Shown: in pieces, positions 58,230-58,877 of the stretch
Layout: the number at the start of each line of letters is the position of its first letter
How positions within the stretch are numbered: position 1 is the first letter of the stretch
Sequence record: OQ870566.1
Reading direction: 5' to 3' (one strand)
Length of the DNA: 64,000 nt
From: Escherichia phage SR02
The notes under the pieces: model-generated
Told to the model about the DNA's origin: nothing
What the model saw: only the letters and a program-made list of their open reading frames with translations
The model's database searches: none
Position numbers and translations under genes: made by a program

Positions 58230-58877
58230 ATGATGGCGAAGAAAACAACACCTACAAGATATCGAATTCATGGAATTCCTATTAAATATATCTCAAACTA
58301 TGAAGAGTTTTACAGAGTGAACTGGAAAGTGGTTCACAAGTTCTTCATGTACGATATCAGGGATTATCATGAAGCAGAAGATGTGGCACAAGAAGTGCTC
58401 TTGAACGCTTGGAGATTTGTCTTCGCTAAGCAGGATGAGAGAGTCCTAGAGGATGAGAAAGACCAAGAGCATATGACTTATCGAGTCAAGAACATTATCT
58501 GGTCTATACGCTCAAATAGGCAGACTGTAGGGGACCGTCGTATCTACTCTATTCCAGAGGCTGATATGTTCCGTACTCCTGATATGGTGGACAGTCCTTT
58601 AGAGATTGCTATGGATAAGCAAGATTCTGTTGGTGACCCATTCATGGAATCTCGTATCTTCTATTTCTTCCAAGATTTAAGTGATACGATGGACACTCAG
58701 AAGTTAGCTAATATGTTCTCAATGATTTTCTTGGGTATTCCTCATGACCACATCCAGAAGACTATTGGAATGTCACACGGAACTTTCTACCGTCGTTATG
58801 CGGAGTTAAAAGATCTGTATGAGTATGTGGTAGAGAAGCATTTCGATAAAGAAGAGTTTCAAGGGTTGATTACATGA
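58230..58877 (+). CDS. ECF-like sigma factor
   Basis: Region 2-like [16 protein letters not shown]; region 4-like [25 protein letters not shown]. Confidence 0.65.

Follow-up and report, generated by a model that had tools for sequence, protein, structure and literature searches.

We find that the gene at 58233..58877 (plus strand) of Escherichia phage SR02 (record OQ870566.1; the 64,000-nt stretch analysed here as a whole is called the window) and the nine-base motif TAATGTATA that recurs in the same DNA are almost certainly the characterised sigma factor gp36 of phage phiEco32 and its published middle and late promoters, a system that is already known. Nothing argues against this main identification, which as it stands matters only as correct annotation: the window carries the known gp36/gp79 switch, with middle and late promoters that can be placed by homology. 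In addition, a divergent copy of the motif, here called Pas, together with a conserved non-coding block, constitutes a modest lead.

The window represents a Kuravirus, with DNA approximately 94% identical to that of phiEco32. The 1.7 kb around the sigma gene are matched by 97 phage records, phiEco32 among them (94.2% identity), with the phiEco32 counterpart in this match being annotated as 'RNA polymerase (ECF) sigma factor'. We observe that the reverse complement of phiEco32 is collinear with the entire window, permuted across the phiEco32 genome ends, with 80-98% identity along the collinear alignment, a few swapped modules, and the end of the window corresponding to phiEco32 position 28608. 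The DNA of the two phages differs by about 5-6% and by some module swaps, with gene order being the same. A tRNA scan returned only the known tRNA-Arg (24714-24789). The gp36/gp79 transcription switch of phiEco32 was reportedly described by Savalia (2008) and Pavlova (2012), and on the basis of near-identity to that phage we infer the same mechanism for the window phage; promoter activity would likewise carry over, given 94-99% identity to the phage that was studied.

The mechanically called open reading frame spans 58230-58877 (plus strand, 215 aa), and the gp36 gene itself (214 aa) starts one codon later, at the second ATG (58233), which is the published protein start and is better placed behind the AAGGA ribosome-binding site than 58230. 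The window protein is identical to phiEco32 gp36 at 213 of 214 positions, K28R being the sole substitution, and all reported contacts to DNA or polymerase are kept (D44, E47, E49, D50, E54, E79, H80, Y83, R84, W90, S91, S94, N95, Y186 and R187). A search of solved structures returned PDB 9M7Y chain F, 'RNA polymerase ECF sigma factor' (E = 2.6e-145), and PHROG 1740, 'RNA polymerase sigma factor', was matched at 2e-45. Since phiEco32 gp36 is a demonstrated sigma factor that binds E. coli core RNA polymerase and drives middle and late transcription (PMC12276001), the proposal of the preliminary description that a sigma-like protein redirects the host polymerase is borne out, with the function being published for phiEco32. 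The accompanying remark that regions 2 and 4 are recognisable holds only in part: region 2 is visible below threshold (Pfam Sigma70_r2, 19.1 bits under a cut-off of 24), and a region 4 match was absent in the Pfam profile search of the sigma protein. Similarity to TIGR02937 (sigma70-ECF) is weak but full-length (23 bits versus a cut-off of 42.9), and window gp36 stays below the curated thresholds for the sigma-70 family and its ECF group (region 2 plus region 4). The resemblance of gp36 to sigma-70 and ECF factors lies in fold and function, as established by cryo-EM, and not in curated sequence membership.

The gene context is as in phiEco32, with a macro-domain gene upstream and a SLOG/'GTP-binding' gene and a dNMP kinase gene downstream. 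Directly upstream of the sigma gene we observe a sigma-70-type promoter-like site, TGGACA-18-TATAAT (58182..58211, plus strand), with an 11/12 match to consensus. As judged from this match to consensus only, the site is the likely route for the first synthesis of gp36, and the same sigma-70-type upstream feature has been described for the sigma gene of phage SU10 (PMC4281155).

The open complex of E. coli RNA polymerase, gp36 and gp79 on the promoter P68 has been solved by cryo-EM by Xu et al. in 2025 (PMC12276001; PDB 9M7Y). The clamp helices and the flap-tip helix of core polymerase are the binding sites of gp36, which directs promoter melting, as described for the phiEco32 protein, which is 99.5% identical to that of the window (PMC12276001). 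The N-terminal domain is sigma-2-like and reads A-14, A-13, T-12 and G-11, with melting in the P68 open complex spanning -11 to +2; the C-terminal domain is sigma-4-like, a fold established by cryo-EM and not from sequence, with R187 contacting G-37 and Y186 contacting the base pair at A-34 (PMC12276001). The co-factor gp79 inserts into the RNA channel, drives region 4 of sigma-70 out of place and lends stability to the C-terminal domain of gp36 (PMC12276001), and its gene lies in the window at 38362..38610 (plus strand; 81 of 82 residues identical to phiEco32 gp79 by tblastn). In the window phage, gp36, as a divergent (ECF-like) factor of the sigma-70 family, would replace sigma-70 on host core RNA polymerase; its N-terminal domain would read the AATGTA core of tAATGTAtA (approximately -14 to -9), with melting nucleating at -11, and its sigma-4-like domain would contact the -35 region (G at -37, A at -34). 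With gp79 expelling sigma-70 region 4 and stabilising the C-terminal domain of gp36, the enzyme would thereby leave host and early promoters for the middle and late promoters of the phage.

Among known systems, phiEco32 gp36/gp79 is essentially the same one, with five of the six promoters homologous in position and carrying the same variants (TAATGTAgA at P6, aAATGTATA at P68), and with the published phiEco32 description being without the seventh, divergent site. Bacterial group IV (ECF) sigma factors share with gp36 a sigma-2-like and a sigma-4-like domain, which read the -10 and -35 regions and are joined by a linker through the active-site cleft (PMC12276001). They differ in that the sequence similarity of gp36 stays under the family cut-offs, that gp36 recognises promoters mainly through a 9-bp -10 element while ECF factors lean heavily on the -35 element, that the first helix of gp36 is rotated and helix 4 of its C-terminal domain shortened, and that gp36 needs a phage co-factor, gp79, for full activity (PMC12276001). 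[quoted passage not shown] In the T4 AsiA/MotA system, a comparison drawn by the authors of the structure themselves (PMC12276001), sigma-70 region 4 is likewise remodelled or displaced and a new specificity factor brings about the switch from early to middle transcription; T4, however, keeps sigma-70 and adds an activator, whereas phiEco32-type phages replace the sigma factor altogether.

With respect to the promoters, Lavysh et al. (2022) report six that depend on gp36, upstream of genes 6, 13, 26, 40, 58 and 68, with the consensus tAATGTAtA (PMC8948821), and their Table S3 gives P6 as TAATGTAgA and P68 as aAATGTATA and also lists P58 and P40. According to Mizuno et al. (2014), the phage sigma factor recognises three middle and three late phiEco32 promoters that share tAATGTATAtA, 6-8 nt upstream of the start points, and the six SU10 equivalents are given with their sequences (PMC4281155); the same six promoters were recovered computationally by Guzina and Djordjevic in 2015 (PMC4331800). 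The use of this motif by phiEco32-type phages, which the preliminary description had put forward tentatively, is thus a matter of published record, with a consensus and six mapped promoters.

We assigned the window sites by locating the motif in phiEco32 and by collinearity, and we observe it at the positions homologous to P6, P13, P40, P58 and P68, each time in the orientation of the gene. Two of these are late promoters: the P6 -10 element TAATGTAGA (13277..13285, minus strand; phiEco32 1677(+)), upstream of gene 6 and showing the published variant TAATGTAgA, and that of P13, TAATGTATA (4971..4979, minus strand; phiEco32 9101(+)), upstream of gene 13. The -10 element TAATGTATA is also found at P40 (56403..56411, plus strand; phiEco32 36632(-); listed in Table S3), where it is kept in 11 of 11 relatives, and at P58 (48977..48985, plus strand; phiEco32 42937(-); listed in Table S3), upstream of gene 58. 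P68, the promoter of the cryo-EM structure, has the -10 element AAATGTATA (44646..44654, plus strand; phiEco32 46862(-)), upstream of gene 68, and an upstream (-35) box TGGTAGTAGATA (44623..44634, plus strand) that places G at -37 and A at -34. The sixth published promoter, P26 (phiEco32 26014), lies beyond the end of the window. Five of the six sites put forward in the preliminary description are accordingly known promoters by phiEco32 collinearity. The site at 13277 does lie just upstream of a gene, as had been stated, with the site being P6; the identification of that gene as terS is not supported, gene 6 being given unknown function by PHROGs. A distance of 30-60 nt to the start codon, given there for the exact copies unless inside a putative origin, applies to P13 (33 nt), P58 (36 nt) and P40 (59 nt, the gene 40 start being at 56471) and also to P68 (39 nt), whereas P6 (11 nt) falls outside it.

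An A at -34 is present in all of the listed sites, including the one at 56342(-), in the window as well as in phiEco32, and a loose T-R-G-N-A-S at -38..-33 fits all of them in both phages except P58 of the window (AAGAAA). This is consistent with the structural contacts of R187 and Y186 and suggests a weak general -35 element for gp36, contrary to the earlier description of gp36 promoters as 'single element' (PMC8948821).

The exact 9-mer TAATGTATA occurs four times in the window, at 4971-4979(-), 48977-48985(+), 56342-56350(-) and 56403-56411(+), where 0.80 copies are expected from shuffles and none of 100 shuffles reaches four. The near-matches are AAATGTATA at 44646-44654(+) and TAATGTAGA at 13277-13285(-). 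The four exact copies and the near-match at 13277-13285 stand as first described; two positions, 56343 and 44647, had been given one base too high and are corrected here to 56342 and 44646. Across the 64 kb, the degenerate WAATGTAKA returns just these six sites. That the 9-mer is a chance or compositional repeat without relation to the sigma factor would be in keeping with the behaviour of looser versions of the motif, as one-mismatch variants as a class are not enriched (17 observed versus 19.8 expected from shuffles), the AATGTA core is not enriched either (41 observed versus 45.9 expected), and six matches to WAATGTAKA are reached by 10 of 100 shuffles. Against a chance origin stand the enrichment of the exact 9-mer and the intergenic location and correct orientation of the sites, five of the six falling within the roughly 10% of the window that is free of dominant-strand ORFs (the sixth, P13, shows a partial overlap with nothing but the upstream extension of one ORF in a crude ORF map), as well as the homology of the sites to experimentally mapped gp36 promoters. 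We give a chance origin practically no credence, and published phiEco32 work (primer extension, in vitro transcription, cryo-EM) already refutes it. Because looser versions of the motif are not enriched, the near-matches are supported by homology to published promoters and not by statistics, and the evidential weight lies only with the exact 9-mer and the positional evidence.

The remaining exact copy, Pas (-10 motif TAATGTATA, 56342..56350, minus strand; phiEco32 36704(+)), is directed away from gene 40. It is situated in the 306-bp gap that separates the gene 41 homologue from that of gene 40, faces opposite to P40 and lies about 52 bp from it. Its upstream box TGGTAGTAGATA (56362..56373, minus strand) is identical to that of P68 and has the same 23-nt offset from the -10 element, with the upstream sequence ATTGGTAGTAGATA being that of P68 at equal distance; as in P68, G is placed at -37 and A at -34, both of which are contacts in the structure (PMC12276001). 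The same arrangement is carried by phiEco32 at 36681-36712(+). We compared 25 sequences from the genera Kuravirus, Suseptimavirus and Nieuwekanaalvirus and from metagenomes, and found GGTAGTA kept in 25 of 25 and TAATGTATA in 24 of 25, with the 10-nt spacer between the two boxes occurring in at least eight versions of constant length. The exception is a metagenomic contig that has TAATATATA at the Pas -10 position and loses the G at -11. Pas is missing from the promoters described in the four papers covered here (PMC8948821, PMC4281155, PMC4331800 and PMC12276001), and the 56342(-) site is not one of the six published promoters.

At the 5' end predicted for a Pas transcript lies a hairpin, AGAGTTA-gagaa-TAACTCT (56317..56335, minus strand), with the predicted start, 6-8 nt past the Pas motif, coinciding with the first base of the 6-7 bp hairpin. 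In an alignment of eight haplotypes, pairing is intact in 97.9% of cells; compensatory changes occur at two pairs (C-G, U-A and A-U in one; U-A and G-C in the other), and one pair alternates between G-C and G.U, which is valid on the minus strand only. The observed score is attained by 0 of 500 shuffles, and slid controls collapse. Three features, namely two boxes conserved around a freely varying spacer, an upstream box identical to that of P68 and this covarying hairpin at the predicted 5' end, lead us to propose that Pas is probably a seventh functional gp36 promoter, firing divergently from P40 into a non-coding region; its absence from the promoter lists of those papers, the lost G at -11 in one metagenomic relative and the lack of a downstream gene count against it.

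The 56342(-) site might instead be no promoter at all, being a conserved DNA element in a replication origin, a protein-binding region or a recombination linker, with the promoter match either incidental or serving to hold gp36-polymerase near P40. In favour of this, the 306-bp intergenic region around the site holds a nearly invariant block, a palindrome and a TAGGGACT direct repeat, it lies next to a 100-nt stretch that is one of the window's two most AT-rich, and its neighbouring segments are swapped (gene 41 present or absent, the central segment of type A or type B); the site is also without a published report as a promoter (lists in PMC8948821 and PMC4331800). Against this, two boxes conserved at a fixed distance around a free spacer are the signature of a bipartite promoter, the upstream box is the P68 box that gp36 contacts, and the downstream hairpin shows strand-specific covariation starting from the predicted start site. 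We consider the non-promoter explanation unlikely, without dismissing it.

With respect to what a promoter at Pas would transcribe, consensus folding of the putative RNA shows covariation in the 5' hairpin only, the remainder being invariant, and the single-sequence fold is modest (z = -2.3). The central segment exists in two unrelated versions, with type A being present in the window, phiEco32 and SU7 and type B, about 25 nt longer, in ECBP2 and myPSH1131. A small ORF downstream of Pas was rejected as a candidate, as there are only TTG-start ORFs of 21-32 aa and type B phages have unrelated sequence in place of the segment. Further downstream, alignments across three genera delimit a nearly invariant non-coding block of about 100 nt (56174..56271), which stays near-invariant although not all of the phages carry the adjacent gene 41. 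The block is predicted to contain a GCAGG-loop-CCTGC hairpin and a long AT-rich stem AAATAGAGAAT...ATTCTCTATTT; these pairs never vary, so that covariation neither supports nor refutes the predicted structure. On the plus strand the AT-rich stem is followed by TTTTTATCT, for which reason the block may also terminate the upstream operon on that strand. The block also holds a AAGGAATCCTT palindrome and the TAGGGACT direct repeat.

No Rfam match was obtained at E <= 1 for 55900-56600 on either strand, an E. coli homolog of the putative RNA or of the block was not found, and antisense matches within the window do not exceed 12-16 nt, which is chance level. When viral and metagenome contigs were scanned for the conserved block, only close relatives came up and no distant ones, and a literature search on Kuravirus transcriptomes, antisense transcription or the phiEco32 origin returned nothing relevant. 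Candidate roles for a Pas transcript are those of a small RNA, of an antisense or interfering transcript, and of a primer at a T7-like origin. The fuller reading, which we regard as somewhat less likely than not and hold less firmly than promoter function as such, is that Pas is a so far unreported gp36 promoter, the best in the genome by sequence, whose non-coding transcript would be conserved across Gordonclarkvirinae and would comprise a stabilising 5' hairpin, a swappable central domain and an invariant 3' block of about 100 nt, acting as a regulatory RNA or as a T7-like origin primer. If active, Pas would extend the published picture of six promoters with a single element and, in agreement with the 2025 structure, would support the view that gp36 uses a genuine -35 element; it would also indicate a non-coding RNA that has escaped annotation, or a replication origin, in a group that is used for therapy and for transcription studies.

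In phage T7 the primary origin consists of phage promoters and an AT-rich stretch, and the layout of Pas and the AT-rich DNA at 56095-56195 resembles it. A functional Pas whose transcript primes DNA synthesis at such an origin, with a phage promoter followed by an AT-rich stretch and a T7-like replisome, would fit a phage that encodes a primase/helicase (39522-41312) and, by homology to phiEco32, a DNA polymerase. The segment 56095-56195, downstream of Pas on the minus strand and adjoining the conserved block, is 82% A+T, which is the 99.9th percentile of the window and ties for its most AT-rich 100 nt. The gene 40 homologue (56471-57217, plus strand, 248 aa), which falls in a PHROG family without assigned function, ends in an acidic tail, ...YEDDNDSPF, as is typical of SSB proteins, and two relatives annotate it as an ssDNA-binding protein. 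AT-rich intergenic DNA is nevertheless common, GC skew tracks gene orientation and marks no origin, and a published origin was not found for this phage group. Priming at a T7-like origin is quite improbable in our judgement, and the putative origin invoked in the preliminary description is not established.

Several minor observations concern the individual promoters and their surroundings. In type B phages (at about 690-860 in the myPSH1131 sequence) an extra insert of approximately 150 bp lies between the divergent promoters and holds a small plus-strand ORF (MKFNHKYAATEKARAYV...) that begins inside the Pas upstream box. P40 and P58 of the window read TATAATGTATA (56400-56405 and 48974-48979, respectively), so that a perfect sigma-70 TATAAT overlaps the gp36 element, with that of P40 pairing with ATGATA at 16-nt spacing (10/12 match); compared with phiEco32, which has GCGTAATG and CCATAATG there, both window promoters gain the hexamer. 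The P40 -10 element is also one arm of a near-palindrome, TAATGTATA-T-TATACATAA (56403-56421), which creates the one-mismatch motif TTATGTATA on the opposite strand and is kept in phiEco32-type relatives, being less clear in the SU7 type. Downstream of gene 40, at 57239-57256, lies a terminator-like hairpin.

At 13263-13285 (minus strand) the P6 motif ends just before the annotated ATG of the gene 6 homologue, and a start 6-8 nt after the motif would exclude the AGGAG ribosome-binding site from the P6 transcript. The P6 mRNA would then be nearly leaderless, unless gene 6 truly starts at a later codon; residue 16 is where the PHROG profile match of the homologue begins. A third TGGTAGTA box is found at 22358-22389(+), in the intergenic region of genes 117 and 116 (phiEco32 69147(-)), and is conserved in phiEco32. 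It is accompanied by TAATGCTCT at the same 23-nt offset, with TAATG kept and the rest of the motif lost, and a sigma-70-like promoter, TTGACA...TATAAA, lies next to it; the box could act as a weak gp36 site or have arisen by chance.
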